A stretch of 46,876 nt of DNA, counting the filler, from Catajapyx aquilonaris (Eukaryota): NCBI GenBank assembly GCA_000934665.2. It is 2 parts of 2 records of this genome, joined end to end, with 100 filler letters (N's around TTAATTAATTAA, not from the genome) between each part and the next. Parts side by side here need not be neighbours in the genome. Positions count along the whole stretch, not along the records: positions 23,502 to 46,876 come from JYFJ02005692.1; 1 more part is not named here. One strand, written 5' to 3'. A program made the translations under genes and the position numbers. This document shows, in pieces, positions 688-46,876 of the stretch. Below the pieces are notes generated by a model. The model was not told the DNA's origin and searched no databases. It saw only the letters and a program-made list of their open reading frames with translations. Within the stretch, counting starts at the first letter, position 1; each line of letters starts with the position of its first letter.

Positions 688-800
688 TGCGCAGGCGCAG
701 AACGTGAGCCAATCGGAAGCATCGCGGAAACAATATACAGCGAGCCAATAAGCGTCAGTCATACAACGAAGGATTTTAATATGATCGATAAAATAAATCG
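688..800 (+). promoter_or_regulatory. Promoter-like motif cluster inside the foxo intron
   Basis: NRF1/Ewg-like TGCGCAGGCGCA (688-699), two CCAAT boxes (709-713, 745-749) and a DRE-like ATCGATA (~784-790). Confidence 0.35.
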
Positions 801-13945: not shown

Positions 13946-16798
13946 TCAGTTCATCACTTCCTGCAGTATGTCCTTTTTGTCTTCGAAATATTTTCTGAAC
14001 CACTCGATGAACTCCTTCTTCCTTTGTACAGTCAGATACGGGTTTTTGGACAGTGCCACGCAGACCAACTCCATGAAGTGTCTGATCGGCCCACTCTTTG
14101 GGCACCAGGGTTCAAGGTGAACTTCCATGAATACATGTTCGTGAAATCCAATCTTCTTCTCCTCATCCATACCTTGAAATACATAAGAAAATAATTTATG
14201 CATTTATTTTGTAACCAGTAAACTAATTCTAGCCAGGCAGCACATTTTTAGTAACTAGTAGTAGGTACTTTTCGGATACTTCTTCAGTACTCCGTAAAAA
14301 ATTTAAAACCATTAAAAATTGCGATTTAATTTTATTTCTCATCATTACCGCATTTTGTATTTGGTGCCATCACCTAGCAATGGCAATTACCGTTTGTAGA
14401 TCGTAATTGTTTCCATTTCTAGTATACGAAATGGAATATTAAGGCGTTTTGAATGTGTCTGTTTTCGGAGCGCACCATTTCGTTGTGAGCTTCCGGAATT
14501 GTGATACCACATCAACATGCCTAGCAAAGCTTGGCGTAAACGACACGTAGGAAAAGTCAAATACGCTGCTAAAAATAAAAACAGACCAAATGAACCTGCA
14601 AGCAGCATCGCAAGGCACACCAGGTGTCCAGGTATAACGCCCAGCACCGCGCGATGTACCATGAAAATTCCATAATGCCTTTACTTGATCCACAATTGAG
14701 ATGAGAAATCCTCGTATCCAGTTCTCCTGAGCCAATGTTGTACCTAACCAAGCTCTGAACCGCTCCGACCTTGGCTCCACTCTTCCCCTGAACTGGCTTG
14801 AACCAGAACCAAACTCCGACGCTTGCTCCGAACCCGGCTCTACTGCTCCGGAGCAGCTCTGATGTTATCAGGTTCACGGAACAAGGGTTCGGTTCACAAC
14901 CCTGGCATTTCCATGGAAAAAGAAAGAGTCGAAAGTTCCAGGGGTGCTTTTGGCAGAATGCCATTGCCTATAATTTGTCTAACAAAACTGTTACGTCACA
15001 GTCAGCATGTTAGGCTTGGTCCCCTATACGGTATTTGGGTTAACTTCTAGACGTTTCACTGAAATTCATCATGTAATTTGCTATTGTGTGGCGCAAAATG
15101 TGAAGTTCTTTAGGTTCCGTTTTATAAAATGAGGTTGCAAGTTAAGGGTTAACCATGATATGAACTATGAGTAAACAAGTCCTGCGTCTTCACCTTGTTC
15201 ATTATCAATGGGAAACTGCCAGAGCTTTCCTTGCTCCGTCAGCAGGATCATTTCCTCAAACCCGTGGGCAGGCGGCTGCGTTACAGACAGCTGAATCTCT
15301 CTCTCCTTTAGTCGGTCCCAAGTCTTCAGTGTGACTGGCTCCGACTCGCTCTTGGCCACCCAGTCAGCTGGGAATATCCCCAGTGGCTTGCTTCCGAAAA
15401 GGCTGACCTCTCTGGGTCCCTGACCAGGTTGTCGTCTGAAGTCACGCTGCTTGAACTCACGTGGACCCATCTCCTTACCTCCGTACTTCCTTGTGATCCT
15501 CTCACTGGCTTTGGGCTGCTCAACTTGCATACCTTCGAAAAGATTGCTGCCCCAAAAAACATTCAATCAATGTCCAGTTATTTAGCAAACGATTAGTAAC
15601 TCTTCGATTTTAAAATATGGTTTGAATCGTTGAAACTTGCTCTTTCAGCCAGTGCATAATTATTCGTTCTACATCAGACTGGAAAATTTTGCGTTATAAA
15701 AATTGTTATATGCAAGTGTGCGTAAATGCTTCAGTATTCGGCACCAAAAATGATGACCGTTTCAGTATTCGGCACCTTCAATTCGGCAGGGCCTTCAATG
15801 GTCGGGTCGCCGTAAGGTATTTCCCCAAAATGACATCAACTTTGAACATTTTAGAACATTTAGTTCCTTTTCCCCTCAAAAACCGGAGCCGATAGCATAC
15901 CTTAGAGTTATTGGTTTGGCAGCTTCCTTTTTGGCTTCCTCCGTCTCAACTGCATGGAACTTGAGACGTTGCAGAAGTTCAGATTCGGTCAGTTTGGGTT
16001 CTCCAGGCACAGCCTCCGACACATCTTTTGCAGCCGTTACAAGCTTAGGATCTGCGATGCATAAGTCAATAAATATTTTACGCCAAGAAAGCAACTTCGA
16101 TAATAAAATTACCAATAGTATCCATATACATCTTCGTCTCCTTACGTACAGCTTCACCCTTGGGTTTGCGTCTTGGCTTCGGTTTGGCCAAGTCCAGGCT
16201 AAAGTCTACATCAGCCGCAGCTTTTGGCTTGTCTGAATCCTACATCAAAATAAACACATAAAATGTCATGTTACGGGCTTAAACACGTTGTTGGTTGGTT
16301 GGTAGGAAGGGTTACCCAGCTTGTATGGCTCTGTCTGAGTCGGGCCTTGGCAGCCGGGGGGTAGGAGAGGAAGGTGTGGGATTGCAAGGTAGGGTGGGGG
16401 AGAGGAGGGCTGGCCCCGGCTGCACTGCAATGCCGGGTCCAACCCAGGGACGGGGGTGGCTTAAACACGTATAAATAGTTGTGCAATACTTTGATAATTG
16501 AAGCCAGCAGTTGTGAGAGCTTCTGCGACGCTTCCTTAGTCCTCTCCAGCTTCTTCCTTTCATCTTCTTCCTTCTCCTTCCTGGCCTTTCTCCTCACCTC
16601 ATCGTCGCTATCACTCCCTGAACCAGCAAACCTGATCTGCAAACCGCTGCTCCTGCACACCAAACCACAAAAAAATGTCACTCATTCTACAATACATTTC
16701 TATTAGAAATTTCACCATTTTTCGAGCCTCCCTGGTCCCCTTTTGGGCTTCAAAATTGCGAGGAAGCAACGGCCAACAGACATCATGGCCGCCGCCAT
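13946..16798 (-). CDS. mRpS31: Mitochondrial ribosomal protein S31 (mS31), 6 exons
   Basis: Exons 16716-16798, 16490-16652, 16146-16239, 15901-16051, 15194-15546 and 13946-14172 have GT-AG ends and consistent phases. Family motifs: [23 protein letters not shown] and FHEHVF...[21 protein letters not shown]. The N-terminus is basic and presequence-like. Confidence 0.95.
16289..16457 (-). mobile_element. 5'-truncated retroposon insertion in mRpS31 intron 2
   Basis: Flanked by a 13-bp direct repeat GGCTTAAACACGT (16276-16288 and 16458-16470), with an (ACCA)n tail on the minus strand. Confidence 0.8.
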
Positions 16799-17525: not shown

Positions 17526-20500
17526 ATGGAGAGTCTGGACGGGGAGGATCGGAAGACTCTCCGTTCCTTCTACTCCATTTCGGACCCTCTGGAGGCCCAG
17601 TTCGAGGACCTGGATCCCCTGGTGAGGCTGGACGTCTACAGGAAGGTCCTCTACGTGTACGACTCCTCCTGGTTCGTCCCCCCTGAAGAGCCTTGTGCAG
17701 GCCCAGTCTGGAAGCAGATCCACAAGTGAGAGAGAAGCGCCATTCCTATATATGGGATCGATACCAAGGGGGGAAAACTCTTCCAACAAAAGGGGAGAAA
17801 CGTAGTGTGCGTGACAGAAGAAGAAAACCCCTTTCGATTAGTCCCCCTCACTCTTTATATAGGCCAACAACGGGTGTGCTCCATAATAACTCATATTGTC
17901 GTGGCGTTGCGCATTTGGAGGTAACGCAATACGCATTGAAAGAAATATGAACGCAATGAGCATGGAAAGAAAATGCGTGTACGCAACGCATTTAAAGAAA
18001 TAGGCAGAAAACACACACGATTTGTAGCATTAAAAGGCTAAGTTTGTTTGCTTGTTTGGCCATTTCGTACCCATTTGATGCCTGACAGTTACGCAGAGAA
18101 TGTTTGTAAAAAGCAATAGTTTGTTGGCCATTTTCATACCCATTTCGTGGCTGTGAGAAGAACGAAGGATATGTAAAAGAATAAAAAATAAAAGTATTCA
18201 AATTATTGTAATAACAAACAAAATTGTTAAAACTATAATAATAACATATAGTTCATATTTTGGGTTAGCTTGTGGCTCCAGTCATCGCTGGCTACCCCTT
18301 ATAGGGAAATGTGATGATGATGATAATAATAACAACAAATAAAATTGTTAAAATTATAATAATAACAAACAAAATTATTAAAATTATAATAACACAAAAT
18401 TGTTACAATTCTAATAATAACAAACAAATATTATCGAAATCAATGTAATAACAAATTAGATTATTGAAATTATAATAATAACATAAAATTATTAAAATAT
18501 TGAATAAAATTATTAAAAATAAAGGAATTTGTAACCTTTTGCTTGTTGACCATTTCGTACCCATTTTATGTACCTGTTTCATGTCCGTGAGAAGAATGAA
18601 GAGTAAGGATATGCTTGTTTGGCCGTTTTGTACCGATTTCATGCCGATTTTATGGCCATATGTACCCATTTTATACTAATACAAAGAACAGTTCCCTGCT
18701 AGTTTAAAAATTAAAGGCCGAATCTTCGACGTATTGTGCAAACCTGTGGGAGGGGTGCGCAAACGGGCTGCCCGTTTGCGCGCCCCTCGCGCAGGTTTGC
18801 GCGATACGTTGAAGATTCGGCCCTAAATCGCAAGTTGCGTTAAATGGCAATCAGTGCATTTACATGTTTCATGTCATTGCAGATGGATCAACCTGATGGG
18901 TGTGGGCCACTTGGCGCCCAAACGGGAGCACTTGCAGGGAAAGCGGGCACCCAGACTCCTGTCCGAGATGCTGAAGGTGATCGACCGCAAGCTGAAGCCG
19001 AACCAGATCTGCTCCAAGATACGGGTGGTAAGTGGCTGTGTGTTAACCACTTTTATTGCGTTACATTGCGCCCTTTTTTTGGTAGCTGGAAAAGAAGCTG
19101 GGGAAGCAGCAAGCGGGGCGGACTGAAAGCCACGAGTCAAAGGAGGTTGAGGTTGACAAGGAGAATGATCCGCCGGAAGCGAAAGGGAGCGGAGCGGAGG
19201 AGGAGGACACTGGCGGAGGCAGGCAGTATCGCAGGGTGTCACTGAACAAGACCTTCATCGTTGACCCCAAGACCAGCTACTTGGTGCTGAAGAAGCAGGA
19301 ACAGAAGATCAGACGTGAGACCAGGTCTGAGGATGCGGCCAGTCCAAACTTAATCCCCACTGGACGGCAACTTCCGAGGACACCGCCGCGCAAAGGGGAC
19401 GGAAGCTCATCCGAGAGAACCTCGCCTGAAGGAGCATCCCCGGAGTTGTCGCACAACGAATCATGCGATCCAACCGAGCAGAAATGTTCAACACCAGTGA
19501 GCAATCAGCCTGAAGAGGTAATTGCTACTCTTTGCGAAATTAAGGACAGGATTTAATTGTGCTTTTTTTTTTAAAGGATGCGGACAGAGAGGTTGACGAC
19601 AATGCGGAGGTGCAATCATCGCAGGAAGAGGAGGACACATTTTCGTACAGCGCAAGGTCATTCGATACTCATCCGGCACCCGTCCAAAGCTCACCTCCAT
19701 TGGCCTGGCCTCGTGGCCGCTCCTCCAACTTCCCAGCCAACCTGACATCATTCGAGCTGCTCCCTGCAATTGAACCATCCGTAACCGCCTTGCAAAACTT
19801 GATCCCAAAGGGAAAGGAAATTCCACGCACACCTGCACCTGGGATGCACCCTCGCTTCTCCATCGAATCAGACGAATCGGTTTCTCCAATATCGGAGGAG
19901 ATCGAAGGAGGCATTTCCGAGGCGTCTTCCAGTTTGCCCTCCGCATTTTCCGTCACAGAAACATGCATGACAGTCGATAGCCAGACGACGGCCACTGACA
20001 CTGAATCGGAAATCCCGGAGGAGAGCCTATTGGAGCGACTAAAGGCGGATCCGAAGCCGGAGCCGAAAGAAGAACCAGCAGAAAGTATCGACCGGAAGCC
20101 GGAACCGAAACTGAAGCCATTAAAGCTGAAAATGGAGGAAGGTCTTGGCGACACGCAGACAAGGCGGAAGCGCAACAATGCAGCGCAACGTAACAATGTG
20201 GCTAAGCGTGGAAAGGGACGGTGCAAGAAGGAAGAGTCGAGCGATGAAGTTAAGGAAGTGGCTGCACCTCCTGTAGGTAAGGAAGTGGCTGCATCTCCCG
20301 AAGTGAAGGAAGTGCCTGCACCTCCTGAAGTGAAACATGCGGCTGCACCTCCCGAACTGAAGATTGCAGCGGCTCCGAAGGTACGAACTCGCAGAAAGAA
20401 ACCGGCTAAGGTTGAAGCGGATTTATCGGAGACGTTGCCTGAACCGGAGGTAGCGAGTAGCACAAAGCGGCGGACTAGGAGACGAAAGGATGCTGCGGAA

Positions 20501-20768
20501 GAGGTGCCTGAGGCGGAGTCTCCCGCTGCGACTCTGGACGAACCGAAAGCTGAGCCGGAACAGCCTTTGGTTGTAGAAGCACGATCGTACAGGTTTCGGT
20601 CACGGAAAAAGGTCGACTACGCGGAGGAAAGCCCTGAGCAGAACAGGCGGGCTACAAAGAACAAAGGACGGAAGGTACGTCATCATTTCAATCGCACATG
20701 TTGACAGTATGATACAACAATATTTCTCGTTTCAGGCAAAACACAAGCCGAACACAGATTCCAACTGA
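17526..20768 (+). CDS. Uncharacterised ~635-aa protein: small folded N-terminal domain plus long acidic/basic disordered region, 5 exons
   Basis: Exons 17526-17725, 18883-19027, 19086-19517, 19577-20674 and 20736-20768 splice in frame with GT-AG ends (1908 nt). Several basic NLS-like clusters and SP/TP sites. Confidence 0.8.
18190..18520. repeat. AT-rich minisatellite, ~30-bp unit (AATAACAAACAAAATTGTTAAAATTATAAT)
   Basis: Several degenerate copies in intron 1 of the 635-aa gene. Confidence 0.8.
18715..18823. mobile_element. 109-bp fold-back MITE, PIF/Harbinger (Tourist)-like
   Basis: The whole element is a near-perfect palindrome with ends RGGCCGAATCTTC...GAAGATTCGGCCC, and TAA lies on both sides (18712-18714, 18824-18826). 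Confidence 0.8.
20246..20380 (+). repeat. Coding tandem repeat, 27 bp x 5 (EVKEVAAPP-like)
   Basis: EVKEVAAPP VGKEVAASP EVKEVPAPP EVKHAAAPP ELKIAAAPK. Confidence 0.85.
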
Positions 20769-24785: not shown

Positions 24786-27700
24786 TCAACAGGGTCAATG
24801 ACTGTAGACGTGTTCTGATCCCTGATCGTCTAGATACTCTAGAAAAATAGATCCGTAGATAACATGCCGCCTACAGAAAATACTTCACACTATGCCCGAA
24901 TGTGACGCGAGCTACTAAGCAAGCTTTATAATGTGGAAGCAATGTGTAGATCGAGACTTAGATATGCTCCCTTTTCAACATCAACATGGTAACATACAAT
25001 TAATGGTTCTTCCTTGGGTTCTTCCTTGCTCTCTTCATCAGACACGCAAGTGCACTCCACGTCCAACAAAACATCAATACACTACGGAGGGAGGATTAAT
25101 AAAACTGTTTATTGTCCGATTACATGCACGGATAATGCCTGGGTCATACATGACAATAACCTCGACATATGTGGTATCACTAATAACATTTTAACAAATT
25201 GGGACATTATTGATGATGACAGTATTTTAGAAATATATTTAGGACATAAAATAATGCTGATTTTGACTTCTGGATTTATTAAGATGCAACCGAAATGAGA
25301 CACATTTACATAATGTATTAGGGCAGCAATACAAAATCTCGTGCCCCGCTCAAGTGCAAAGGAATAGACGGAAAGTGCCCCAAAAATTAATTGTACAGTA
25401 TAATATACCGAGGTGCGTTGAAAAAACTAGCTGACTGCTGTAATCCTATGGAATGAAGCTGCCGTATGTTTAAAATTTTCACACCTCGTTGCGCAAAGAT
25501 GCTAAAAAGATGATACAGAAATGTGCATGCGAAATTCTATCTTCTTAACCACGACTTCTTAATTTTTCCAACAGAGGGTCAGTAATATCGGAAGTGCTTT
25601 TTTGATGGTAAATACTTCTCAGTAACAGCCTGTGTTTCGGCCGTGAAAATCGTAGTCTTATTCAAGTAGACTTATTATATTATTCGTTAGTTGCTTACAT
25701 GTACTGTACAATAGGCTACTTTAAATGTGAAGAACACAACAATAATTAAGTGCATTTCTCGAAAGGATATGCGGGAATGCTTGCAGAGACTCGACAAATT
25801 GCTGCCTTTTGCGCACTAACTGCTGATTACTGTTACTTACTACTCCCGTTACCTAACAATTTTATATATATCGTACGATATAATATTTAGCGCCCCGGAA
25901 TTCCCCAACGAAGCATACAGTAGCAACAGCCAGAAACCCACACAACATAACCAGCGGGCCTTTTATCTGCATCAAATTCAGCTTCATAGAAAGGGTATAC
26001 GAGAGGCCTTCTTTCCTGGCTGATTTAAGCGCCATTAACGACAAAGCGTATGTGAAAGCTGTTATGTACCTATATTTCAAGCCAGCATTTTCATACCGGA
26101 GCTCAAAATCTCTAACGGCCTGGTACAACTTACTGTACTTGCTAACCACCATACCTCCAATCGCTCTGAACGAATTGTCATCCGCAATGTTGACTGGCAG
26201 CCTTCCTTCCAGATCCATATGCAAAAAGGCCACCGCATTCAGCATGTCGTAGAAGGAAAAGCAGCTGAAATCTTCCTTCATCGACCTTTGAAGACAGCTG
26301 GTCATGTCTCCTCCGTCTTGCATTCCTCTTTGCAAAGCTGGAGCATAATCTATTTCCCCGCCTAACAACAGTTTCATGTAAGGCTGGATAAAGTCCATTG
26401 CGCCCCATTCCCAATTGGGCCAGTACACCATTTCCTTGATGGTCCTGGGCAGTTTCTCCATCTGTGGGGAGACCAGGAATCCAAAAAACTTGGCGTCATA
26501 ACCGCACACAATCACGTCTGCATACAACCACCAGAAGCATATCATCACCCTCAAGGACACAGTGGCCGGAATCAGATTCGGACTCTCCTCGATCAAAGCC
26601 GAGAAAATGAATCGGATCGAGTAGCGCAGAGAATTCCCGGGTGGTTTCTCGCCTTCAGGAAACGGGTTCTGAATGAAATGGTGAAGATTCAGTGCTGTGA
26701 AGAAACACAAGCTGTACGTGACTGCTGAGAGGAATATCAGTCCCCACATCCCTCGAGTGAAAGGCTTCAGTATGGATATCCAAGAGTACAGAGGCCGCGG
26801 TGTGCGGATAGAGAAGGTAATTTGAGTCGAGAAGAAGCAAGTGGTCGGATGTACGACCAGGACCGTTTCTTCGGTGCAAGCACACGCCCCCACGTGCATA
26901 ATCCGCTTCTGAAGAGGTCCAACCATGCCTGTCCAGTTGCCATCAGGAAGTAACACGTCTTGATCGACTCCAGGAATGTCCTCGGGAGCATCAATATGCC
27001 AGTTGTAGTTTTGGGCCAATCCGCAGTCCAGGAATATCATTAGGTATGGTATCACTGGAAGGTAGTTTTCCACCATGTAATTAATATCGCTTGGTGAGGT
27101 CTCGAACATGAAGGACACGTTCATATGGCGACCATGCAGGTCTCTGGAGTAGTCAGGGAAATACTCCAAGCCAGAGTTGGGTACAATCTTCGGATATCCG
27201 GAGTCGCAAAAATGGCAGAGGTTCTTAACCACCAGAGAGTTGGCCGATTGTTCGTAGACGACGCCTAACAAGTACAGGAAGTCGTAGTCCGGCAGCATCA
27301 TCGAAGTCTGGATATCCGAATCCGGGCTGTAGTAGAAGAACTTGTTCCACCTTGGATCCAGTCTGACAAGACAGGCCACATGCTTCAGCACTGATTCGAA
27401 GTGGTCTTCGTGGTAGATGATGGCCACCAGGGTGCACTTGGACACGAATCTGGCAGTGGGCCTTTCCAGCCATGAGAACCAGTACTCGAAGTTGCCTGGT
27501 CCGGAGTTGACCTCTGGAGGTGGGGTCGATTTGGTCCACTGTATGGGCAACAGGCCTCCTTGGTCATCAGACGACATGTTTCTAAACAGGGCCGACATCG
27601 AAAGTGGAATCACTTCGTAGTCGTGGCCAACCACCAGCAGGCAGTGGTCCATTTCGGATCGGACAATCTCCAAAAAGGACATCACTTTATCTAAACCGAC

Positions 27701-28615
27701 TTCTTCGCCCGTTGAGTCGTGTAGGAAACAGGTCGACAACGGCATACTGACCACTAGGTGCAGTAATATGAAGTACAGCATCGCCATGTAGTATCTGGTA
27801 CAATACAAGTCAGTGTGTGTGAAAGAAGCAGCAGTAAAATAATGCTGGCCGAACTGATCCTACTCTTGGCTTTATAGGACAGAGAGAACATGAATGATTT
27901 GGTGCAAAATTCGCGAAGTATGACGGCATTCGGGGCCTCTGGTTTATGATCAATCAGGCATCAAAAGAAAGGTACTACGCCCATTTCCCCTTGCTTTCCA
28001 CACAGGTCTTATGCAACATTTCTATTTATATTATTTAGTATGTCCACGAGTCGTATAGGAACTGCCGCGCATATGATGCTGGCTATGCTTGTATTTTTTT
28101 AGGAAACGTGTCAGCTGAACACATTAAGATCCGGCTTCAAGCGCTACAAAATAGTTTCATGACCTGAAATGTTTAGCACAAAAACAGTAGTATATAAGTT
28201 ATTTATTTACTTTTTGGAGAAAGCTAATTTTAAAAATAATTTTCACAATTATTATTTAACTGCAAGTTCATTTATAAATTCCCGGAAGGTTGTATTGACC
28301 GGATCTGATTTTCCAATGAAATGAACACTTTCCAATAGAAACATTGACAATGTCCGTATATGAATAGCACACTTTAAGCGGAATTACTTGGCCTCCAATA
28401 ATTTATGATCGACCACTGGGTAAGATTTCAAAACAGAGCTATTGTACTTCATGGCCTCAACCCTCAAGGACCGGTGACTCCAACCCAGTTCCCTAGGAAC
28501 TAGGACAAAGCAACCATAAACATGCAACGCAACAAAATGACATCCTAATGCATGCCCACAGCCTGCGTTTTCAATATTTAAGTAAGTCTGTAGAGTTCAA
28601 GTCATGCATACCATG
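24786..28615. repeat. Segmental duplicon copy 1 (~3.8 kb) carrying an IR gene
   Basis: Collinear with 32940-36625 from TCAACAG.GTCAATGACTGTAGACGTG to CATACCATG, including non-coding flanks. Confidence 0.92.
25862..27787 (-). CDS. Divergent ionotropic receptor (IR, iGluR-related), intronless, 641 aa
   Basis: Signal peptide, S1 motif PDGNWTGMVGPLQKR, pre-M1 ILKPFTRGMW, M3 SLRVMICFWWLY...GYDAKFFGFLVSP, and M4 after LNLMQIKGP. Start taken at the ATG equivalent to the paralogue's. TATAAA at 27871-27876. Confidence 0.93.
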   Translation of the reverse strand: MAMLYFILLHLVVSMPLSTCFLHDSTGEEVGLDKVMSFLEIVRSEMDHCLLVVGHDYEVIPLSMSALFRNMSSDDQGGLLPIQWTKSTPPPEVNSGPGNFEYWFSWLERPTARFVSKCTLVAIIYHEDHFESVLKHVACLVRLDPRWNKFFYYSPDSDIQTSMMLPDYDFLYLLGVVYEQSANSLVVKNLCHFCDSGYPKIVPNSGLEYFPDYSRDLHGRHMNVSFMFETSPSDINYMVENYLPVIPYLMIFLDCGLAQNYNWHIDAPEDIPGVDQDVLLPDGNWTGMVGPLQKRIMHVGACACTEETVLVVHPTTCFFSTQITFSIRTPRPLYSWISILKPFTRGMWGLIFLSAVTYSLCFFTALNLHHFIQNPFPEGEKPPGNSLRYSIRFIFSALIEESPNLIPATVSLRVMICFWWLYADVIVCGYDAKFFGFLVSPQMEKLPRTIKEMVYWPNWEWGAMDFIQPYMKLLLGGEIDYAPALQRGMQDGGDMTSCLQRSMKEDFSCFSFYDMLNAVAFLHMDLEGRLPVNIADDNSFRAIGGMVVSKYSKLYQAVRDFELRYENAGLKYRYITAFTYALSLMALKSARKEGLSYTLSMKLNLMQIKGPLVMLCGFLAVATVCFVGEFRGAKYYIVRYI

Positions 28616-32939: not shown

Positions 32940-35900
32940 TCAACAGTGTCAATGACTGTAGACGTGTTCTGATCGTCTAGAAAAATAGATCTGTAGATAG
33001 GCCTAATAACATTCCACCCACTGAAAATACTTGCACTGCCAGAATGTGAAGCGAGCTACTAAGCAAGCTTTATAATGTGGAAACAATGTCTAGATCGAGA
33101 CTTAGACATGCTCCCTTTTCAACATGGTAACACACAATAATGCCTGGGTCATATTACTCATAGATGACATGAACGACGACATAATTATGTGGTATCATTA
33201 ATAACATTTTTAACAGATTGGGACAGATGACAATGTTTTAGAAATATATTTAGGACAGAAAATAATGTTGATTTTGACTTCTCAATTTATTAAGATGCAA
33301 CCGAAATGAGACACATTTACATAATGTATTAGTGCAGCAATAAAAACATCTCGTGCCCTGCTCAAGTGCAAAGGAATAGACAAAAAGTGCCCCAAAAATT
33401 AATAAATTGTATAATGTACCGAGGTGTGTTGAAAAACCTAGCTATGGAATGAAGCTGCTGTAGGTTTAAAATTTTCACGCCTCGTTAGGCGAAGGTGCTA
33501 AAAAGATGATACAGAAATGTGCATGCGAAATTCTAGGTTCTTAACCACGACTTCTTAATTTTTCCAACATCGGGTCAGTAACATCGGAAGTGCCTCTTTG
33601 ATGGTAAATACTTCTCAGTAACAGCCAGTGTTTTGTCCGTGAAAATCATAGTCTTATGCAAGTAGAGTATTATTATTCGTTGGTCGTTTACATATACCGT
33701 ACAGTATAGGCTACATGCGTAGAGCATAGCAGTATTTAAGTGCATTTCTACAAAGGATATGCGGGAATACGTGCAGAGACCCGACAAATTGCTGCCTTTT
33801 GCGCACTACCTACTAATTACTGTTACTTACTACTCCCCCTTCCCTAGCATTTTTATATTTCCGATCTGAATATTTAGCTCCCCGGAATTGAAGTAATTCC
33901 CCAACGAAGCATACCGTACCGAGAGCCAGAAACCCACACAACATAACCAGCGGGCCTTTTATCTGCATCAAATTCAGCTTCATAGAAAGGGTATACGAGA
34001 GGCCTTCTTTCCTGGCTGTTTTAAGCGCTATTAACGACAAAGCGTATGTGAAAGCTGGCATGTACCTACAATTCATGCAAGCATGTTCAAATCTGAGCTC
34101 AAATTCTCTAACAGCTTGATACAACTTACTGTACTTGCTAACCACCATAGCTCCAATCACTTTGAACGAATTGTCATCCACAATGTTGACTGGCAGCCTT
34201 CCTTCCAGATCCATATGCAAAAAGGCCATCGCATTCAGCATGTCGTAGAAGGAAAAGCAGCTGAAATCTTCCTTCATCGACCTCTGGACACAACTGGTCA
34301 TGTCTCCTCCGTCTTGCATCCCTCTTTGCAGAGCTGGAGCGTAATCTATTTCACCGGCGAAAAATAGTTTCAAGTAAGGCTGGATAAAGTCCATTGCGCC
34401 CCATTCCCATTTGGGCCAGTGCACCATTTCCTTGATGCTCCTGGGCAGCTTCTCCATCTGTGGGGAGACCAGGGATCCAAAAAACTTGGCGTCATAACCG
34501 CACACAATCACGTCGGCATACAACCACCAGAAGCATATCATCACTCTCAAGGATACAGTGGCTGGAATCAGATTCGGATTCTCCTCGATCAAAGCCGAAA
34601 ACATGAATCGGATCGAGTAGAGCAGAGAATTCCCGGGTGGTTTCTCGCCTTCAGGAAACGGGTTCTGAATGAAATTGTGAAGCTTCAGTGCTGTGAAGAA
34701 ACACAAGCTGTACGTGACTGCTGAGAGGAATATCAAGCCCCACATCCCTCCAGTGAAAGGCTTCAGTATGGATATCCAAGAGTACAGAGGCCGCGGTGTG
34801 CGGATAGAGAAGGTAATTTGAGTCGAGAAGAAGCAAGTGGTCGGATGTACGACCAGGACCGTTTCTTCGGTGCAAGCACACGCCCCCACGTGCATAATCC
34901 GCTTCTGAAGAGGTCCGACCATGCCTGTCCAGTTGCCATCAGGAAGTGACACGTCTTGATCTACTCCGGGAATGTCCTCGGGAGCAACAATGTGCCAGTT
35001 GAAATTCATGGCCAACCCCGAGTCCAGGAATATCATTAGGTATGGTATCACTGGGAGGTAGTTTTCCATCATGTAGCGTACGTCGCTTGGTGTGGTCTCG
35101 AACATGAAGGACACGTTCATGTGCCGCCCATGCAGGTCTCTGGAGTAATCAGGGAAATACTCCAAGCCATAGTTGGGCACAATCCTCGGATATCCAGCGT
35201 CGCAAAAATGGCAGAGGTTCTTAACCACCAGAGAGTTGGTCGATTGGTCGTACACGACGCCTAACAAGTACAGGAAGTCGTAGTCCGGCAGCATCATCGA
35301 CGTCTGGATATCCGAATCCGGGCTGTAGTAGAAGAACTTGTTCCACCTTGGATCCAGTCTGACAAGACTGGCCACATGCTTCAGCACTGATTCGAAGTGG
35401 TCTTCGTGGTAGATGATGGCCACCAGGGTGCACTTGGACACGAATCTGGCAGTGGGCCTTTCCAGCCATGAGAACCAGTACTCGAAGTTGCCTGGTCCGG
35501 AGTTGACCTCTGGAGGTGGGGTCGATTTGGTCCACTGTATGGGCAACAGGCCGCCTTGGTCATCAGACGACATGCTTCTAAACAGGGCCGACATCGATAG
35601 TGGAATCACTTCGTAGTCGTGGCCAACCACCAGCAGGCAGTGGTCCATTTCGGATCGGACAATCTCTAAAAAGGACATCACCTTATCTAAACCGGCTTCT
35701 TCGCCATTTGAGTCGTGTAGGAAAGAGGTCGACAACTGCATACTGACCACTAATAGGTGCAGTAATATGAAGTACAGCATCGCCATGTAGTATCTGGTAC
35801 AATATAAGTCAGTGTGTGTGAAAGAAGCAGCAGTAAAATAATGCTGACCGAACTGATCCTACTCTTGGCTTTATAGGACAGAGAGAACATGAATGATTTG

Positions 35901-37840: not shown

Positions 37841-38438
37841 TCATATTATGATAAACCCAATACAAATATTTAATCCACTACTCTCATTTTTTAGAAAATT
37901 GCACATCAGTCAATTTTCAAAGTTGAAAAGTCTTTGAAATCATGTGCATTACGTAATGATTTCATTATGCAACAAAAAATGCCTTCCCAAATTTATCTGC
38001 AGTACTTTTTTGAAATCATATAATTCTGCAGTAAAAAAATGAAAATACGTAAATTAAAAATACACAAATATGGGACGAGTACAAATGCAATAAGCCACAT
38101 AAAAACACCTGGCCTAAAGTTTCAGCACCAAACTAAGGTTATTTCTGATAGATATTAATTTTGTATAATGTACATGGCAATTGCATTTAAGGTCTTCCCA
38201 ATACCAAATGTAAAGTTGAAAGGGTGAGAGGAATGAACTTGCACACACAATTTTCAAAATTGTATGTTACATTTATATTAATTACTACTGTATTACTCAA
38301 TTTTTGCACTTCTCATGTCACGTGTCCAAATTTATTACTCTGTCAACCTTTCATTATTTTATTTATTGGAAAATTAAGAAACGAAAGGGAAATGCAGCAA
38401 AATGAGGCAAAATATTAAATCAGGAATGGTTGCTGCTC

Positions 38439-41400
38439 TTAATCATCTTCTTCCTCCACATGAACATCTTGTTCCATGTCAGAATCAGCGCTGTAATCCT
38501 CGCCTGGCATTGAGTAAGTAAAGTCTCCACTACCTGACGTGTCTAATTCCATTCTGGTACTAGATCCAGGACGATTCATTTTGGTAAAAGAAACCTCAGG
38601 AGTCTCCCCTTCTGTCTCTGCAGGCTCGGGAAAGTTGTCAGCCACAAATTGGGCAGCCTCTTCTTTTGTAATGTTTCGGATTGACTGTTTTGTTCCATGT
38701 GCCTCGACGAGATAGATCGAATCAGCCATGTCCAGAAACTCCTGATGAAAGGAAGTGATGAAGAATTGGGTGTTCTGGGACATGTCCTTGATCAGTTCAG
38801 CCAATTTCCTTCGATTTGTAGCATCCAGTGACTGTTGAAAAAAAAAAACAATCCAGAAGAATTCAATATAGGCTACGCCAGTAACAGATGTAATGGACAA
38901 TTTGTATCTGTCATTCAGCACATGTTGAATAATTGCTCTCAAAAATCTGAAAACATATTTCTTAAGTTTTTTTGACAGTGGTTCAATTCCAGAGATGGAA
39001 AATGTGTAGGCACTTTGTTGACACATTATTATTATTCCCCAATAAAACTCTAATAATGCCACACACTGCACTGTGAGAGCCACTAGTTTAGAGGACTATA
39101 TAAGGAGTTTTAAATAACTTACGCTATCTATCTCGTCCATCAGGAAGAAAGGAGATGGGTTGCACATGTGCAAGGCCATCAAAAACGCCAGTGACACCAG
39201 TGACTGCTCACCAGCGGACAGCCACTGGACGGGGACAAAGGACTCTTCTGCATTATCTGGATCCAGGTACACCTGAATGGTAATACCAACTGGTTTTCCA
39301 AAGTCAGTGTGGGTGGCCATCCTCATCTTGGTTCGGGCCTTTGGCAGGAAGTGATTGAAGATCTTCACAAAAGCATCTCGCACACGCTCGAATGATGCTT
39401 GAAGAACTTCATCCTTCTTTCCTTCGACATCCTCTATCAGATCCCTGAGATCCTGATTTCTAAAGGGAAGAGTGGAAAGTGCATATTTGATGCATTAAAA
39501 AGTTGGGGAAATGACATGAGAAGGCTGTTACTGCTGCAATTTAACTGTTGAAAAATTTTGACATTTAATGTGCCAATATGATTTTTAAGGAAATTTCTGA
39601 TAGACATCTTAATAATTATGAATAGAGAGGGGCATTTCTCTGCCCAGGTTGACAATCTAGAGAGAGGGGAGAAAAAAGGTTGAGGAATTACTCTCTCCTG
39701 ATCCTCATTTAAGGCCAGGCTAATTGGCATAATCTACCTTCACCATTTTGCATACACATTTGGTTAATATTCCATCAACTCTTCCTTCTCCCCTCTCCTC
39801 AGATCGTCAACTTGGGCTGTGAAACACCATACTAATAGCATTTCCCTCGAGGTTGACCAGCTGGTGTACAATAGGCTACACTTTTGTCATGTAAATCACA
39901 AAATAATGAGTAGGAAAGTTTAATGCTTCCTTACATGGTAAATGACTACATGAGAGGTGCTTTCAACTATTTCAAAATTAATATTGTTGGGCATTTCAAC
40001 AGCCATGAGTAATATTCAACTTATGCTATAACACAGCATTTTAACTTATGCAAAAAAAAAAGTATGATTCAGAATGACTTACCCAGTTTTTAATATCTCC
40101 AACGAATTGATCACTCTCTTCAATCCGTCATCCACATTTTCCAATTCTTCTGTCACAGTAGGAACAGCTATTGGTGAGGGGGTTACCTCTTTGTCACCAG
40201 CAATTTTCACAAGCTCATCTGTGGGTTTTTCCTGCAACTCATTGTATGTTTTTCCATCTGGAACTATTCCCATTTCATCCAGCTTTTGCTTCAGTTTGGT
40301 GATCTTCTGGGAAATTTGCCCTCGTCGCTTGTCCTTATTTTCGAGCTCTTTTTTTGTGTCATCGATTGCCTCCTCCAGCTTGTTCTTTGCACTTTCACAC
40401 TGCTCCAGTTTGGACTTATCTGTCTGATGGTCTTTTTTTATCTTCTTGTATTCTTGCTTTTTCTCTCTCTGGTCATCTTGCAATTTCTGATACCTGCTGG
40501 AAATGACGTTACGCTGCTCTTGTAGTTTTTTCTCTTCTTCGACCTTGTTGGTGAAATCAGTTTTGGTGATACGTTCATCGATACCCTGCATCTCATTCAA
40601 AATGCGTTCCCGTTCCCTTTGCAGACGACCAAGACGTCCTCCAACAGTTTTGCATTCTTTCTTAGCAGACTCCAACTCTCTCCGCAGTTCTTCCTCTTCT
40701 CTGCCAAGTCTCTCAAATGATGCTGCCAATGGTTCACCCACTCCACTTTCAATCTTGCTTTTGAAAGCCTCTAGTTGCCCTGTAATATTCTTGCCCTTCT
40801 GGAGTTCAGTGTCCAACCGTAATATGGTTTGTTTAAGGTTCTGAATCTCCCTCTCCGAGCTCAGGAAATTGCCCTGAAACGTTTTAAGCTGCGATTCGCT
40901 TGCAAGTGATTTATCAGCGCAGTCCCTCATCTTTTTTTTCAGAGTTGTGGCTTCATTTTCAATATTTCTGAGAGTCTCTTCACACTCTTTCATTTCTTTA
41001 GACTTCCTCTCTAATTCTTCTCTGAGTTGTTGTTTAGTGTGAAAGTGGTGCAATGTCGACATTTGGTGAGAAAAGTACCCACCTTCCACAAATCCATCTG
41101 GCATACACTTATGACCTTGGAGTGTAACACACACCTTGCCAAGCTCCTCTGATAGGACATCTCCCTCAGTCAAGGATCTGCACAGAAGCTTGTTCCCAAG
41201 CAGGTGATCAATCAGAGGTAGCATTTTCGGATCATGTGGGGCAACCATTGTAGAGAGTGCAACTGCGCCCTAGACAACAAGACATTCTGTTAGTTACGAC
41301 CATATGCTTATATTGGCAAAAGTAGTAGTAGCATTATTATTTTTTTATTATTAAATTATTATACTGTGCCATACTATTATATCCCCTCAAAAACACACTC

Positions 41401-44400
41401 GTAAAAAACGCGCCAAGTCTTCCGCCGAAAAAACCTGTGAGATAGTGTCTGGGAGCCAAGCCTTGTCCACTCCGCCGTACAAAGTCATGAGATTAATCTA
41501 CCCAAACTATTTGTTTTGAATGGCGTTTGAAATTGTACCGGAAATGTTTACTCGAGATTTCCGCAAAATCGGGAGCACATAAATACGATATATGCCAACC
41601 ATAAAACATTTTGTGCATGTTAGGCCCTACTGAGAAAGGAGTCGGTTTCACGATTTTTCGATAATTTTTATTGTTGATTTTAAAAACTTTTCACGGGGTT
41701 AAATGATTAATTTGACATTTTCTGATCCAGAAATAATTTTAAAACAGCCAATTCAGTAATTGTTTAATTGTTATTATGCCACAATGTCTCAGCTGAGCAT
41801 TCCAAAACGATTGTGCATAATATATCTCATTGTGGCATAATAACAATTAAACAATATTACTGCATTGGCTGTGTTAAAATTATTTCTGGATCAGAAAATG
41901 TCAAATTAATCATTTAACCCCGTGAAAAGTTTTTAAAATCAACAATAAAAATTATCGAAAAATTGTGAAACCGACTCCTTTCTCAGTAGGGCCTAACATG
42001 CACAAAATGTTTTATGGTTGGCATATATCGTATTTATGTGCTCCAGATTTTGCGGAAATCTCGAGTAAACATTTCCGGTACAATTTCAAACGCCATTCAA
42101 AACAAATAGTTTGGGTAGATTAATGATGAATGCAAAAAACATAATTTAGGCCGCCATTTTGGATCCAAATTTTGTGATTTTATTAGGATGATAATAACCA
42201 TCTCACAGAGAGTGAAAACACATTTACAATGCACATATCAATTTTAAGATTTAACCCGATCTTCTGGGTGTTATGGTCCTCCAACTGACAGCGTACAGGT
42301 CGAAAACGCGCGCCGGCTGCATTTTCGCCCTCTGGCGGGTGAGATTCCAAAAATCTCCTCCTAAACTCTTCGGAAATATGAAGCACACATTTCAAGGTTC
42401 ATTTTGAGTGCCATTCAAAAAATCTCAAAAATGGCCAACGTTGAGTAATATGAAAATCAAAATTTCGCCGTCATCTTGAAATCCAAAGTTTTTACTTCCG
42501 GCAATTTTCAATGCGATATCATGAAAGGCCGTTAAAAGAGGTTCCGAAATCACCCATCACATTTGGATTCACTTGAGGGGTTCAGAAGTTACGGGACTCC
42601 ATTCAAAGCCCTAGCCGCGTAAAATGAGTGAAACATCACAACTTACACACCCTGTAGTTTCGCAACCACGTGAGACAGAGATACAAAATCTGGGATTCTT
42701 ACATATAAGCACTAGTACAACACATCTATGGAATTTGGTCGAAATCGTACGAGATTTGTCGGGGGGTGGTCCGCTTGACATGGAATGCCTCATATATGAA
42801 TGAAAAGAAAAAACGCCAATTTGGGCCCGCTCCTGTTGTGGACCTAGTGGTCCAAATTTCACGACAATTTATTTGTATGGTCCCCGGGTGTGCCCCATTG
42901 TCGTATTAAAATATAAGACTTGCAGCATTTTCCTGTGCCGAACTAGAAAATGCCGAAGTGTAGAGAGCGAGTTGGCTCCAGTAAAGGATGCACGGCAGCG
43001 CGAGACGAGAGGGGGAGAGAGAGAGAGTGGTGGAGAGAAGGGGCTATAGTGCGGGTCAGTGGCGGTGGAAGTGGCTTAGACTTGGCGGATGCACTGCCGT
43101 GCATCTTGATCATAATTATCCATCCCATGTAATGCAATCTCAAATGCAACTACCATCAATAAATTGGAGGCTTCCCCACTATCTGGTTACGTAATTCGCA
43201 ATTTTCAGCCTACAAAACCACATAATTATGCTCTTTCCATGTGCTCTGACCCAGGTAGAGATAACCCACGAACAACCAGAAATTGGATTTGAATTTGAAT
43301 TAAACTATGTTGCGCCTATATGCGCAACAAGCGTGCTGCACCAATCCTGTGGTAAATTTACTTTCATTGAGGTTGGAAATACTGCTGTACTTTACATACT
43401 TCTTGCCCTTGTAATAATGAATTTATAATGTAAAGCTTTGGCGATTTCCACTTTGACCAATGTGCATTACTCTTTCGTGTTTTTAGCTACGGTATTTACT
43501 CCTCTCGGAATGGCCAGCTAGCCTTTTAATCTGTTCTCAGGTGTTTTTGATAACAACCATAATTAACTGCTCAATAAATGCTTGCAAATAAGCAGCTTAT
43601 TTGCAAAAAAAAAATTGCTAACCACTGCGGATATTTCAATTGGAATATCTTGTATACTACACCTTACACCCAGTACAGTACTTACACATTGTGGAAAATT
43701 TCAATTACTCTGATTAATGTGCAGCTCTCTGAATAAAAGCTGCTTTCTTATAGGCCTACTTACTTTTAGATCAGGCGGTAGTCTACCACGGGTCTTCAGC
43801 TTGTCCAGAGCGAAAATATTCATGGATCCATTCACAAGCCTTCTTTTGACTTCTTCCAAAAAGGTTGTTGCTGCTTCTGCTGTATCAAATACATAGTTGA
43901 ATAAACTGAAAATGAATAATAATAATCATCATTATCATAATAATAATAACCATAATAATAATAATAATCATCATCATCATCATCATCATCATCATAATAA
44001 ATGTCTTTGAACCCTGGTTGGTTGATTCTGTTGATAAGGAGGGCCGACTAATGTGGTAATGCCCTATATGTACCTTTTATTCAAGCAGCTCTGAATGGCA
44101 GCATATAGTTTCTTGTCACATTCGAAGTTCTCCATGACCATGCCATGGTATGATTCGGCAACTTCCTCATACTCTCCACCACGTCTGCGGAAAATTTCAA
44201 GCACTTCCTCGACAACGCAATTTGTTTTCCAGAGTTCCTAAGGGTAAAAAAAATAATTACTACAGCCCTGATATGATTATACATTGAGATCGCTGAGCAA
44301 AAATAAAATACTAACAGGCCCCATAATGGCACGCAACTCACGATTAGCTTCTTCCAACTGCTTCTCTATATAATTGATTTCATTTTCGATTCTGACCTTG

Positions 44401-45886
44401 TAACGCAGTTGATCATTATACTCTGACTGCTTGGCAGAAAGCTTTAGAGCATCTTTCTTTCTCTGGTCCTCATAATCATTAATCTCTGATTTTACCTGCT
44501 CTGGGTAGTCTCGCATATCTGACATCTCAGTCTCGAGCTTTGTCAATGCTTCCTTTTTTTCATGTAAATCTGCATCTATGCGAGTAACCTCCTCATTCCA
44601 GTGTCCTTTTATTTTGTCAAGGTGTTGGATTTCTGATTCCTGCCATGTACTAGGTACATCTTGGCTGTCAGCTTCGAAAGCATGGCTCATTTCATTTAGG
44701 ACAGCTCGCATGTTGCAAATCTCCGTCATCCTGTGAAAGTGAGATAATGGTTATGAGTAATCACATACATTGAAGCGTTTTAGTTACTAGGGCTGTCTTT
44801 TTCTCCACATAATGTGCACTGTACTTACTTAAGCTCCTTTCTATCCTGTGCTATTTTCTTCTGATGGTAGTCGTCTAGTAGTTTGTATTCTTCTCCTTTT
44901 ACCTGCCTATATTCATTTTCAAGATCAGTCTTCCTTTCTCTAAGAACATCTGCGTTGCTCTCTTGCATGCCTTGCAGTTTCCTTTCAATTCCATCCATCA
45001 TACGCTTGATCATATCATCATCAGAGCCAAGTGTTTGCAGCTCGCCATACAAGTTTCTCTCTTTATCTGCACTCATCTTTTCTGCCATATGAGCTTCATT
45101 TTGGACTATTTGTGCCTGTTCGAGCTCGTTCAATAGATATATCAACTTGTCCTTCATTGAGCTGATGTTCTGCTCACAGTCTGCGATCCTGCCTCTCATC
45201 TTTGCCAAAGGACGCTCATTCAATATTATCTTAGCACATCGTCGCAGCCTATCTTCCTTCTCCATCTTCTCCAACTTTTCCATCCGCTTTTGGAGGGCAG
45301 ATTTTTCTCTACCTAATTCCTCCGCTGCTGCTTGCATGCCTCTAATTTGTTCCTCGCTTATTTTCATAGTCGTCTGCATTTCAGCACGGTTGCTTTCATA
45401 TACGTTTACCCCAGCCATATTGTGGAGAATTTCCAACAGACGTTCTTCTCTTGCAGTTGCCAGTCTCGTGACCATTCCCTGCTTCATATAGTTGTAGGAT
45501 GTTCCATTGACGAGTCCTGAGGCTTCTAGCAGTGACTCTATTTCTTTTGCTGAGGTATGGCGATCATTCAAATAAAACTGATCATGCGTGCTTGCCACTG
45601 CGTGAGCCAGATGCACTTCTTCATTCACCTCTTGTAGCCTGTGGTCTGTGTTGTCAAAAGTAACAGTGACCCGTGCTACTTTGGCCTGTTTTACCCCGTG
45701 GCTGTTGATCAGGCTCATTCTTTGCTGATCAGTTGTGCGGCCTGGTGAGCGACCCAGAACGAAGTTTATTCCACTCAACAGGCTGCTTTTACCTGTTCCA
45801 TTGCAGCCGATAATCAAGTTTATCCCAGTACTTGCATTGTTCAGAGAAATTCTATCTCCGAATCCCTTGAAACCCTCCAGGGTCAC
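38439..45886 (-). CDS. SMC3: Divergent SMC3-like cohesin ATPase subunit, ~1231 aa in 7 exons (a short first exon was not located)
   Basis: Exons 44829-45886, 44316-44730, 44074-44237, 43764-43905, 40083-41269, 39123-39459 and 38439-38831 splice in frame (3696 nt). Walker A GCNGTGKS, Q-loop YMKQG, SMC3-type hinge YHGMVMENFECD and GX6GX3GG, signature LSAGEQ, Walker B PSPFFLMDEID, D-loop SLD, QFFITSFH. Confidence 0.9.
41380..42960. mobile_element. Probable non-autonomous repeat element hosting the palindrome (Helitron/Helentron-like, tentative)
   Basis: Repeat-typical blocks (GGCCGCCATTTTGG, TTTTTACTTCCGG) and a terminal hairpin GCATTTTC...GAAAATGC at ~42926-42953. Boundaries are approximate. 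Confidence 0.4.
41492..42124. repeat. Long near-perfect inverted repeat (~295-bp arms, 41-bp spacer) in an SMC3-like intron
   Basis: 41492-41786 is the reverse complement of 41828-42124 with only a few mismatches/indels. Confidence 0.95.
43912..44000. repeat. (AAT)n/(CAT)n compound microsatellite
   Basis: Read directly from the sequence; intronic. Confidence 0.95.
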
Positions 45887-46321
45887 CTGCAATGAAATAG
45901 AACAAAATAATATCTCCCCCTAGCTGCGGGTTCAGTGAGAAAACATTTGCCTCATAAAGGTCAGGGGTTTGGCTAAAACTTTTGGTGCACAATTAGCGAA
46001 GGCAAAGGTTGATTGAATGCACTTTATCTCACATCTTAACACAGAGCAGATTCGGGTGGAATTTTTTTATGAGCTCAACCGAGTGCGCAACACAGTTCGC
46101 GCAACTTGCAAGGTTGGAATTATTATCAGTGATAGCTGGTAAGCTCTATGCATAGTGGGTTCTGGTAAACAAGCGCCGCCGGACTTATTTCCAAGGCTAC
46201 TCTTAAGGGGGGTAACAATATGGCCGACCTTTGCGACGTTGCTAAGGCTCTGGAAGGATGTAAATTTGGTCCCTGACGAGTCGTGCAAATACCACGTGAC
46301 CGATTTTAGGAAACTTTTTTT

Positions 46322-46421
46322 ACCCCCCTCCCCCCAATGACCTACCGTGGTATCCATTGGAACCCCCCTCCCCCCAATGACCTACCGTGGTATCCATTGG
46401 AACCCCCCTCCCCCCCCCCCC
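46322..46421. repeat. ~40-bp direct repeat x 2
   Basis: CCCCCTCCCCCCAATGACCTACCGTGGTATCCATTGGAA occurs twice. Confidence 0.85.
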
Positions 46422-46445
46422 TTTCACGTGTGTGGGTGTGATCAG

Positions 46446-46770
46446 GTCTTGACTAAGGNGTAGCTGTGGGGACCAGTTCCAATTGTGGGGACATTTGTCG
46501 GTCCCCACAGTCTCACACACGCGAAGTGTACCATTACAGTGGGGACATGTGTAAATTAGTGGGGACATGTCCCCACTATTTTCATTTGTAGGTTTTCACA
46601 AAAGTTCATTTTTCTCAGCCTAGGTTACTTAGGGTAGGGTAGGTTAGGTAGGGTAGGGTAGGTTAGGTTAGGTTAGGGTAGGTTAGGTTAGGTTAGGTTA
46701 GGTTAGGTTAGATCAGTTTACACTCTCAGTGAAAAGTGATCAATGTCCGTCCCCACGCCTTAGTCAAGAC
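46446..46770. mobile_element. Non-autonomous TIR element with internal (TTAGG)n array
   Basis: Inverted repeat GTCTTGACTAAGG (46446-46458) / CCTTAGTCAAGAC (46758-46770), subterminal GTGGGGAC/GTCCCCAC motifs, a TTAGG/TAGGG run at 46621-46711 and TG-rich flanks. Confidence 0.75.
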
Positions 46771-46876
46771 AAGAGTGGGTGTGTGTGTGGTCAGACATTG
46801 CTATCCTTGTGAGGATATTTTTCGCAAGTTTCCTATCCTTGTGAGGACCGAAAACCTTACGAGGACTTTTTTCAGG

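Follow-up and report, generated by a model that had tools for sequence, protein, structure and literature searches.

Catajapyx aquilonaris (GenBank assembly GCA_000934665.2) carries a gene for an SMC3-like protein in which both lysines of the cohesin acetylation site are replaced, so that the K-K-D of human SMC3 (K105-K106-D107) reads T-H-D. The gene lies on the minus strand of a stretch of 46,876 nucleotides, here called the window, which joins parts of two records of the assembly and of which positions 23,502 to 46,876 come from JYFJ02005692.1. We consider it probable that this is an intact, transcribed SMC3 derivative which evolves very fast and which most likely exists in addition to a canonical SMC3. 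A first-pass annotation of the window had pointed out the replaced lysines and had read them as the mark of a natural acetylation-independent, possibly Wapl-insensitive, cohesin. The part of that reading which denies canonical acetylation to the protein held up; the part which makes the protein the cohesin SMC3 of the organism found no support, and its extreme divergence suggests an extra copy instead.

The substituted acetylation loop

Translation of positions 45572-45610 on the minus strand gives LAHAVASTHDQFY, in which the codons at 45589-45581 spell T-H-D, just as the first-pass annotation had it. The 354-residue product of the exon that contains this stretch was compared with all PDB chains by phmmer. 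The top match was human SMC3 (E 7.1e-28, 101 bits), with query residues 1-102 lying on chain residues 5-106 with zero gaps and T-H falling on K105-K106. In this alignment lahavasth of the SMC3-like copy stands on lrrvigakk of human SMC3, and the block after the site, DQFYLN, corresponds to the human DQYFLD. Compared with human SMC3, the patch carries the substitutions R99 to A, R100 to H, G103 to A, K105 to T and K106 to H, and D107 is kept; the glycine and both arginines are thus replaced along with the lysines, which had also been claimed from the sequence at the outset. The features of the site are as follows.

45572..45610, minus strand: hairpin strand and loop, LAHAVASTHDQFY (translation; columns of the alignment of 150 representatives)
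45581..45589, minus strand: THD codons in place of the K105-K106-D107 acetylation loop of SMC3 (translation; ungapped HMMER alignment; hairpin turn of the model)
45605-45607, minus strand: A at the R99 column (translation; 150-representative alignment)
45602-45604, minus strand: H at the R100 column (translation; 150-representative alignment)
45593-45595, minus strand: A at the G103 column (translation; 150-representative alignment)

The D107 column holds aspartate in 145 of the 150 best representatives of the database search described below, and they share the aromatic-rich block behind it; all 150 align in the same register, which is therefore not in doubt. A model of residues 1-180, built with AlphaFold2 on a 44-row alignment (A1), has a mean pLDDT of 85.4, with values of 94-95 around the THD site, and places strands at residues 91-98 and 103-107 with A-S-T-H in the turn between them. 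The structures closest to this model by Foldseek were human SMC3 heads (TMq 0.81-0.83 over 179 columns, 32% identity). That the register should nevertheless be wrong, and another lysine pair be the acetylation site, is hardly credible. Two lysines do occur in the sequence V-K-Q-A-K (query residues 66-70), in the loop before the strand that pairs with the hairpin. Against them stand the gapless alignment of residues 1-102, the anchoring of the register by D107 and the following DQ-aromatic-aromatic-L in those 145 representatives, and the recovery of the same hairpin, with no lysine inside it, in the model. A competing KK pair at the acetylation position, a case which the first-pass annotation had itself raised, is missing from the exon translation both in and beside the hairpin loop, the nearest downstream lysine being 13 residues away. 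Judged from its sequence, the copy is a protein in which Eco1/ESCO acetylation at the canonical site is impossible, because the acceptor lysines are replaced.

The rarity of this loss was gauged with residues 1-180, which were searched by phmmer against 1.84 billion cluster representatives and matched 10,807 proteins at E <= 0.001, none of them at E <= 1e-30 and none with more than 41% identity. Column counts were taken from the best 150 of these matches after re-alignment. The lysine pair is complete in 100 of them and reduced to one lysine in 38, so that 138 of the 150 have at least one; among the 12 that have none, at least four are not clearly SMC3 (P0124, an SMC2 of Ascaris, and P0207, P0222 and P0257, in which the aspartate is missing as well). 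Arginine fills the R100 column in 148 of the 150, where the copy has histidine. At the R99 column, alanine in the copy, arginine is found in 116 and lysine in 17, and the G103 column, again alanine in the copy, is glycine in 114. Counted over R99, R100, K105 and K106 together, basic residues number four in 96 representatives, three in 42, two in seven, one in four and none in a single one, and the copy likewise has none. By these column counts, the loss of the KKD patch is the most complete among the 150 closest representatives.

Lysine-less sites that keep D107, as the copy does, occur in sudA of Wickerhamiella sorbophila (RND), SMC3 of Hesseltinella vesiculosa (SLD), sudA of Dictyocoela muelleri (DND) and a protein of Perkinsus chesapeaki (ATD). 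All four retain the arginine of the R100 column and three of them both arginines, whereas the copy has neither; all four are from fungi or protists and none from an animal, whereas the copy comes from an arthropod. In A1, 33 columns are conserved to at least 90% across the other 43 rows, and the copy agrees with 26 of them; at the five columns of the patch, where conservation is 74-100%, it agrees with none. This contrast was chosen post hoc and is an indication, not a test, that the patch loss may be selective and not mere general divergence.

Gene structure, transcription and descent from SMC3

The THD stretch lies within a 364-codon open frame on the minus strand (44825-45919). An acceptor (...cattgcag followed by GTG) at 45887/45886 leads into the N-terminal half of an SMC ATPase head and a coiled coil, and the exon product matches Pfam SMC_N with E 4.9e-21. 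When the eight exon pieces, all bordered by GT-AG, are joined, the frame runs through 1,258 codons to a single terminal stop; the product has 1,258 residues, or 1,231 from seven exons if a predicted 81-nt exon is left out. It begins at the equivalent of V6, and only the few residues before V6 are missing.

44829..45886, minus strand: 1,058-nt exon, the most upstream coding one found, for the N-terminal half of the ATPase head and the start of the coiled coil (Pfam SMC_N; best PDB matches SMC3; X5 contig on 44870-45124)
45785..45808, minus strand: Walker A GCNGTGKS, P-loop lysine kept (translation; G28, N30, G31, G33 and K34 invariant in A1)
45479..45481, minus strand: Q-loop glutamine, kept (Q137 invariant in A1)
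44316..44730, minus strand: coiled-coil coding exon, 415 nt (GT-AG borders; frame continuity)
44074..44237, minus strand: coding exon with the start of the hinge, includes SYHGMVMENFECD (gene model)
43764..43905, minus strand: coding exon with the middle of the hinge (gene model)
40083..41269, minus strand: 1,187-nt coding exon covering the last part of the hinge and the C-terminal coiled coil (PDB matches to SMC3 hinges; donor 40083 confirmed by X5 contig)
39780..39860, minus strand: predicted 81-nt exon (prediction only; in frame whether included or skipped; skipped in the sole RNA-like contig)
39123..39459, minus strand: coding exon, C-terminal head (best PDB match SMC3; acceptor 39459 confirmed by X5 contig)
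39207-39221, minus strand: signature motif LSAGE (translation)
39132-39149, minus strand: Walker B FFLMDE (translation)
38439..38831, minus strand: last coding exon, end of the head and acidic tail, with the stop at 38439-38441 (10 of 10 PDB matches SMC3; X5 contigs on 38300-38690)

Walker A, the Q-loop glutamine, the signature serine, the D-E of Walker B and the glycine motif of the hinge are all kept. The signature motif reads LSAGE, not LSGGQ, the acidic tail is some 55 residues longer than in other SMC3s, and a loop of the C-terminal head is shorter than in canonical SMC3 proteins. The alignment fits neither the form with the 81-nt exon nor the form without it exactly. For the missing start, an ATG-AAA-ATA before GTG at 46585 was considered as a candidate start exon and was not adopted, being weak and inside a repeat.

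Evidence of transcription comes from X5, a small run of a kind that is not on record, made from another sample of the same organism in another study; its Logan contigs were compared with the DNA run X1. X5 record 12 (256 letters, 0 mismatches) joins 40083 directly to 39459, leaving out 623 bases that are bounded by CT..AC on the plus strand and hence by GT..AG on the strand of the gene. This joint is absent from X1, and both borders had been predicted before the contig was placed. Further X5 contigs lie on exons (44870-45124, 39144-39279 and 38300-38690) and none on unique intron sequence. The depth of X1 over the gene is 31-38, that of single-copy DNA, and flanking and intronic repeats reach depths in the thousands. 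These observations fit a spliced transcript at a low level. The 81-nt exon predicted at 39860-39780 is skipped at least in the molecule of record 12, the only contig that spans the place, and is thus unsupported. A processed or decaying pseudogene was rejected on account of the 1,258 codons with no internal stop, the GT-AG borders, the kept motifs and the spliced RNA-like contig. Drift of the patch in a non-expressed gene, the other case that the first-pass annotation had allowed for, is unlikely given an intact frame of about 1,230 codons and the same contig.

X5 record 11 (210 letters, at 39144-39279) fits from 39144 on, its other 74 letters being unplaced. The break falls inside the Walker B codons, 21 bases before the end of the exon, and could reflect an alternative donor, a chimeric contig or an effect of the aligner.

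The protein matches SMC3 best in all four parts that were compared with PDB chains. PDB matches of the first exon by phmmer ran from SMC3 (7e-28) through Smc (1e-18) and SMC2 (2e-17) to SMC1A (2e-4); the exon with LSAGE and FFLMDE has SMC3 as its top PDB match, as have all ten matches of the last exon, and the exon with the end of the hinge gave three PDB matches with a matched stretch, all of them SMC3 hinges, besides two weak matches to designed repeats. On this sequence evidence the protein is SMC3-derived along its whole length. The SMC3-like identity proposed in the first-pass annotation is thus confirmed in all four parts and, in the tree described below, by an SH-aLRT of 99 for the separation of SMC3 from SMC2 and bacterial Smc. 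With canonical SMC3 (human PDB 8roj, 6wg3 and 7w1m; yeast 4ux3 and 6zz6), which is the best PDB match of every part, the copy also has in common the domain order, the length class and the head fold (TMq 0.81-0.84); it differs in that its gene has few, very large exons.

Divergence from those proteins is extreme. The first 200 residues are 26-36% identical to any SMC3 compared and 29% to that of the horseshoe crab Tachypleus (P0135), whose own N-terminal head is 86% identical to P0138, a protein with a hairpin that reads like the human SMC3 chain, and 64% to that of pear. From head-N through coil, hinge and coil to head-C, identity to Tachypleus SMC3 is 32/19/28/16/35%, against 66/35/47/33/53% between Tachypleus and pear; constraint therefore follows the domains of a working SMC protein, at a far higher rate of change. 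Full-length BLAST identity to SMC3s is 22-24%. Conservation of the kind expected of a one-to-one orthologue is lacking, with 29% identity in the N-terminal head against 64-86% among canonical proteins and an end branch of 3.87 against 0.34, and so are two canonical features of SMC3, namely the lysine pair (T-H-D) and the conserved buried arginine (human R100, yeast R107; histidine here).

These branch lengths come from an IQ-TREE analysis of 31 rows under LG+C20 PMSF, in which the copy has the longest end branch of all (its 3.87 exceeds the 3.24 of a microsporidian and the 0.34 of Tachypleus) and falls at the base of the SMC3 group without a resolved position. Constraining it into the bilaterian SMC3 clade cost 10.15 log-likelihood units and was not rejected (p-AU 0.268) in an AU test of 19 of the 31 rows under LG+G4, the 12 dropped rows being mostly long-branch and unnamed. 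FastTree on 86 rows also placed it at the SMC3 base, and an ancient origin, which that position might suggest, was set aside in favor of long-branch attraction. A special link to the top database match, P0121 from a Paramarteilia metagenome-assembled genome (41% identity by phmmer, 36% by MAFFT), was likewise rejected, P0121 being nearer to canonical SMC3 (44%). Word-index protein searches with the whole exon product and with residues 1-178 returned only prokaryotic Smc and some SMC2 and were uninformative on relatives, and the ESM Atlas gave only generic SMC head clusters.

The introns and the upstream flank of the gene are rich in repeats. In the large intron, an inverted repeat of about 200 bases (41493-41690 on the minus strand, 41926-42123 on the plus strand) encodes identical 65-residue translations and has a DNA depth of 450-3,700, against about 35 in the exons; this depth and the identical frames on opposite strands therefore indicate a high-copy foldback or MITE-like element in the intron. 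Between hinge exons, at 43897-44060, there is a long AT-rich trinucleotide repeat whose six-frame translations are stretches of I, N, H or D and at which reads are cut. The flank upstream of the gene (46300-46876) exceeds a DNA depth of 10,000. It contains several copies of a palindromic word of the tggggacatgtccccac type, a directly repeated unit of some 40 bases with C-runs at its end (46320-46420), a single N (46459) and, at 46620-46710, a (TTAGG)-like tract. We take the (TTAGG)-like repeats at 46.6 kb to be consistent with an arthropod genome.

The other genes of the window, namely FoxO, MRP-S31 and two that are ionotropic-receptor-like, give no functional hint for the SMC3-like copy.

7418-7765, minus strand: first coding exon of FoxO, with the start of the Forkhead domain and an AKT-type site (74-80% identity)
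15165-15566, minus strand: exon of mitochondrial ribosomal protein S31 (Pfam MRP-S31, E 2.7e-26)
19086-20704, plus strand: open frames, 156 and 386 codons long, in which K, E, P and A abound and ...EVK/PPE... units recur (translation; Pfam gave no match)
25862-27859 and 33813-35858, minus strand: tandem single-exon frames of 665 and 681 codons, 91% identical over 668 residues (Pfam Lig_chan, E 2e-08 and 9e-08)

The Lig_chan matches and the 91% identity mark the last pair as ionotropic-receptor-like genes from a young tandem duplication, and the frames at 19086-20704 may be an exon of a disordered nuclear protein. The FoxO exon is 74-80% identical to FoxO of tick, spider and beetle, which puts the genome among arthropods of ordinary rates.

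Extra copy, sole SMC3 or drifting duplicate

Divergent second copies of SMC3 have been described in arthropods. As reported in part of Schurko et al. 2009 (PMC2680839), Daphnia pulex has two SMC3 genes, one of which, SMC3B, forms a long branch outside the animal and fungal SMC3 clade together with a duplicated SMC3 of Anopheles; SMC3B has 14 exons and the other copy 21, and the authors suggested paralogues with new functions. In mosquito, a gene called SMC3-beta serves as a meiotic or postmeiotic marker that is RT-PCR positive in testes and not in accessory glands, according to a passage of 10.1101/507889; an Anopheles 'SMC3-like' protein among our matches, P0245, reads T-K-D at the site and may be this SMC3-beta. 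The Catajapyx copy shares with the Daphnia and Anopheles copies an arthropod host, a long branch at or outside the base of animal SMC3 and a hinge and both ATPase halves that are kept; its exon number is reduced as in SMC3B, to 8-9 in its case. The acetylation pair is altered in P0245 too, but P0245 keeps K106, both arginines and 45-52% identity to Tachypleus in the heads and hinge, none of which the copy retains. Domain by domain, the copy is 32/13/28/12/28% identical to P0245, no higher than to canonical SMC3, the trees do not join the two, and its origin may be independent of the Anopheles copy. The copy also resembles other duplicated core SMC subunits whose evolution outpaces that of the parent gene and around which a second complex could form, namely the meiotic SMC1-beta of vertebrates (mentioned in PMC2680839) and DPY-27 of C. 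elegans, an SMC4 paralogue used for dosage compensation. Full-text searches, outside which most subscription journals lie, returned no report of an animal SMC3-type protein without the acetylation lysines, and no functional study of divergent SMC3 duplicates beyond RT-PCR marker use in mosquito testes; no characterized SMC3 paralogue came up in the literature searches.

We favor an extra copy because the divergence is extreme in a genome with a FoxO of ordinary rate. A sole, essential SMC3 that outpaced even a microsporidian one in an ordinary arthropod genome is therefore unlikely, and we regard as very unlikely the wider reading in which this gene is the only SMC3 of the organism and its whole cohesin system runs without acetylation of the KKD loop. 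In keeping with that reading, the DNA depth is that of a single-copy gene, the gene is intact and spliced, and annotated SMC3s without either lysine exist in Wickerhamiella (RND), Hesseltinella (SLD), Dictyocoela (DND) and Perkinsus (ATD). Canonical SMC3 is, however, highly conserved in animals, as the N-terminal head of Tachypleus illustrates (86% to P0138, 64% even to pear), FoxO of the same window evolves at an ordinary rate, and an end branch of 3.87, above the microsporidian 3.24, is hard to fit with an essential single gene. Daphnia and Anopheles, moreover, keep a canonical SMC3 beside the divergent one, as documented in part of PMC2680839. It is possible, if doubtful, that the patch was lost without regulatory meaning, either through relaxed constraint or because the copy has left cohesin for new partners or is a slowly decaying duplicate. 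Much else in the protein has changed in a way that would agree with this: overall identity to any SMC3 is only 22-24%, 27 of the 63 columns at least 75% conserved in A1 are lost, near-invariant head residues are altered (N36S, A40G, E75T, S127V and V135M in query numbering), the R57 column holds T, the signature reads LSAGE instead of LSGGQ, and the acidic tail is new. Decay, on the other hand, is hard to square with a frame that stays open for about 1,230 codons, with splice sites of canonical form and with the retention of the catalytic residues; the loss of all five patch columns beside the retention of 26 of 33 highly conserved ones speaks against general relaxation, and every domain still matches SMC3 specifically.

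Several points weigh against an intact, transcribed extra copy as we propose it. The paralogy is argued, from divergence and precedent. The copy falls at the base of SMC3 in the tree, and a bilaterian placement is not rejected (p-AU 0.268). No orthologue came up among the 1.84 billion representatives (best 41% identity). In the heads and hinge, where identity is 28-32%, Anopheles P0245 is no nearer to the copy than canonical SMC3 is, so that a shared SMC3B family is no more than possible. A start exon with a start codon was not found in the 990 bases upstream (45887-46876), which are mostly repeats, and expression is inferred from a few low-depth contigs of one run of unrecorded kind. With 68% of the head-N residues changed, some loss within the patch is also to be expected from divergence alone. 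On its sequence we would nevertheless class the gene with the arthropod SMC3 paralogues of 'SMC3B-like' kind, and a specialized role, perhaps in the germline as with SMC1-beta and Anopheles SMC3-beta, would be a guess.

Possible consequences for cohesin

The substituted patch coincides with the sites of releasing activity in yeast, a correspondence which the first-pass annotation had drawn and which agrees with the relevant sections of PMC10656103 and PMC4769318 (K113T/N, R107I/S, G110R/V/W). According to those sections, release by Wapl, Pds5 and Scc3 needs K112 and K113 unmodified, and it is abolished by K113T, K113N, K112Q K113Q, D114Q/Y, S75R, R107I/S/A and G110R/V/W (Rowland et al. 2009, as cited there); substitutions of R107 allow eco1-deleted yeast to grow. 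K112Q K113Q also strongly lowers cohesin loading in yeast (part of PMC4769318), acetylation is described in part of 10.1101/2022.11.23.517716 as acting at the interface with Scc2, and the mechanism by which the unmodified lysines promote release is called still debated in PMC10656103. In its solved complexes the acetylating enzyme binds Smc3 residues 99-111 and contacts I102, A104, K105/K106, D107 and Y109 (part of PMC5349539); several of the enzyme-contacted residues are changed in the copy. With an offset of 7, which we infer from K112/K113 corresponding to K105/K106, the columns in which yeast has its Eco1-bypass alleles, K112, K113, R107 and G110, are naturally filled by T, H, H and A in the copy, and D114 is kept. 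The yeast alleles are single laboratory changes in a native, essential Smc3, whereas the copy differs at about three quarters of its positions.

If the SMC3-like protein forms a ring with SMC1 and a kleisin, which is an assumption, such a ring would resist release by Wapl, Pds5 and Scc3, since release needs unmodified lysines, and would stay on DNA without Eco1 or sororin. Weaker loading through the NIPBL/Scc2 clamp, which uses the same surface, would also be possible. From yeast genetics only, insensitivity of the copy to Wapl is a reasonable expectation; because the same lysines help loading in yeast, a poorly or differently loaded complex is equally possible as a locked one. We put forward as tentative, and on balance unlikely, a second cohesin-like ring built around an SMC3 paralogue that lacks the patch, with a 'locked exit gate' that would need neither Eco1/ESCO acetylation nor sororin and would ignore Wapl. 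If this were true, the locked ring might serve long-lived cohesion in the germline or the chromosome axis, as an SMC3 counterpart of SMC1-beta and REC8. Bolder still, if the protein were the animal's sole SMC3, its whole cohesion cycle would run without the acetylation switch.

The divergent SMC3 duplicates of arthropods are a neglected class, known since 2009 for Daphnia and Anopheles. If the Catajapyx copy is merely a drifting duplicate, its interest is modest; it would be sharper if the genome held no other SMC3 or if the copy were a germline cohesin subunit. Cohesin is generally held to pass from a dynamic to a stable, cohesive or loop-anchoring state by one universal switch, the acetylation of the SMC3 lysine pair. 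A natural animal protein of SMC3 type that selection has probably retained although it lacks the lysines, the buried arginine and the glycine could show which partners, among the N-terminus of SA/Scc3, Pds5, NIPBL and DNA, need the patch, and would also be informative on whether the ring works without its acetylation switch.

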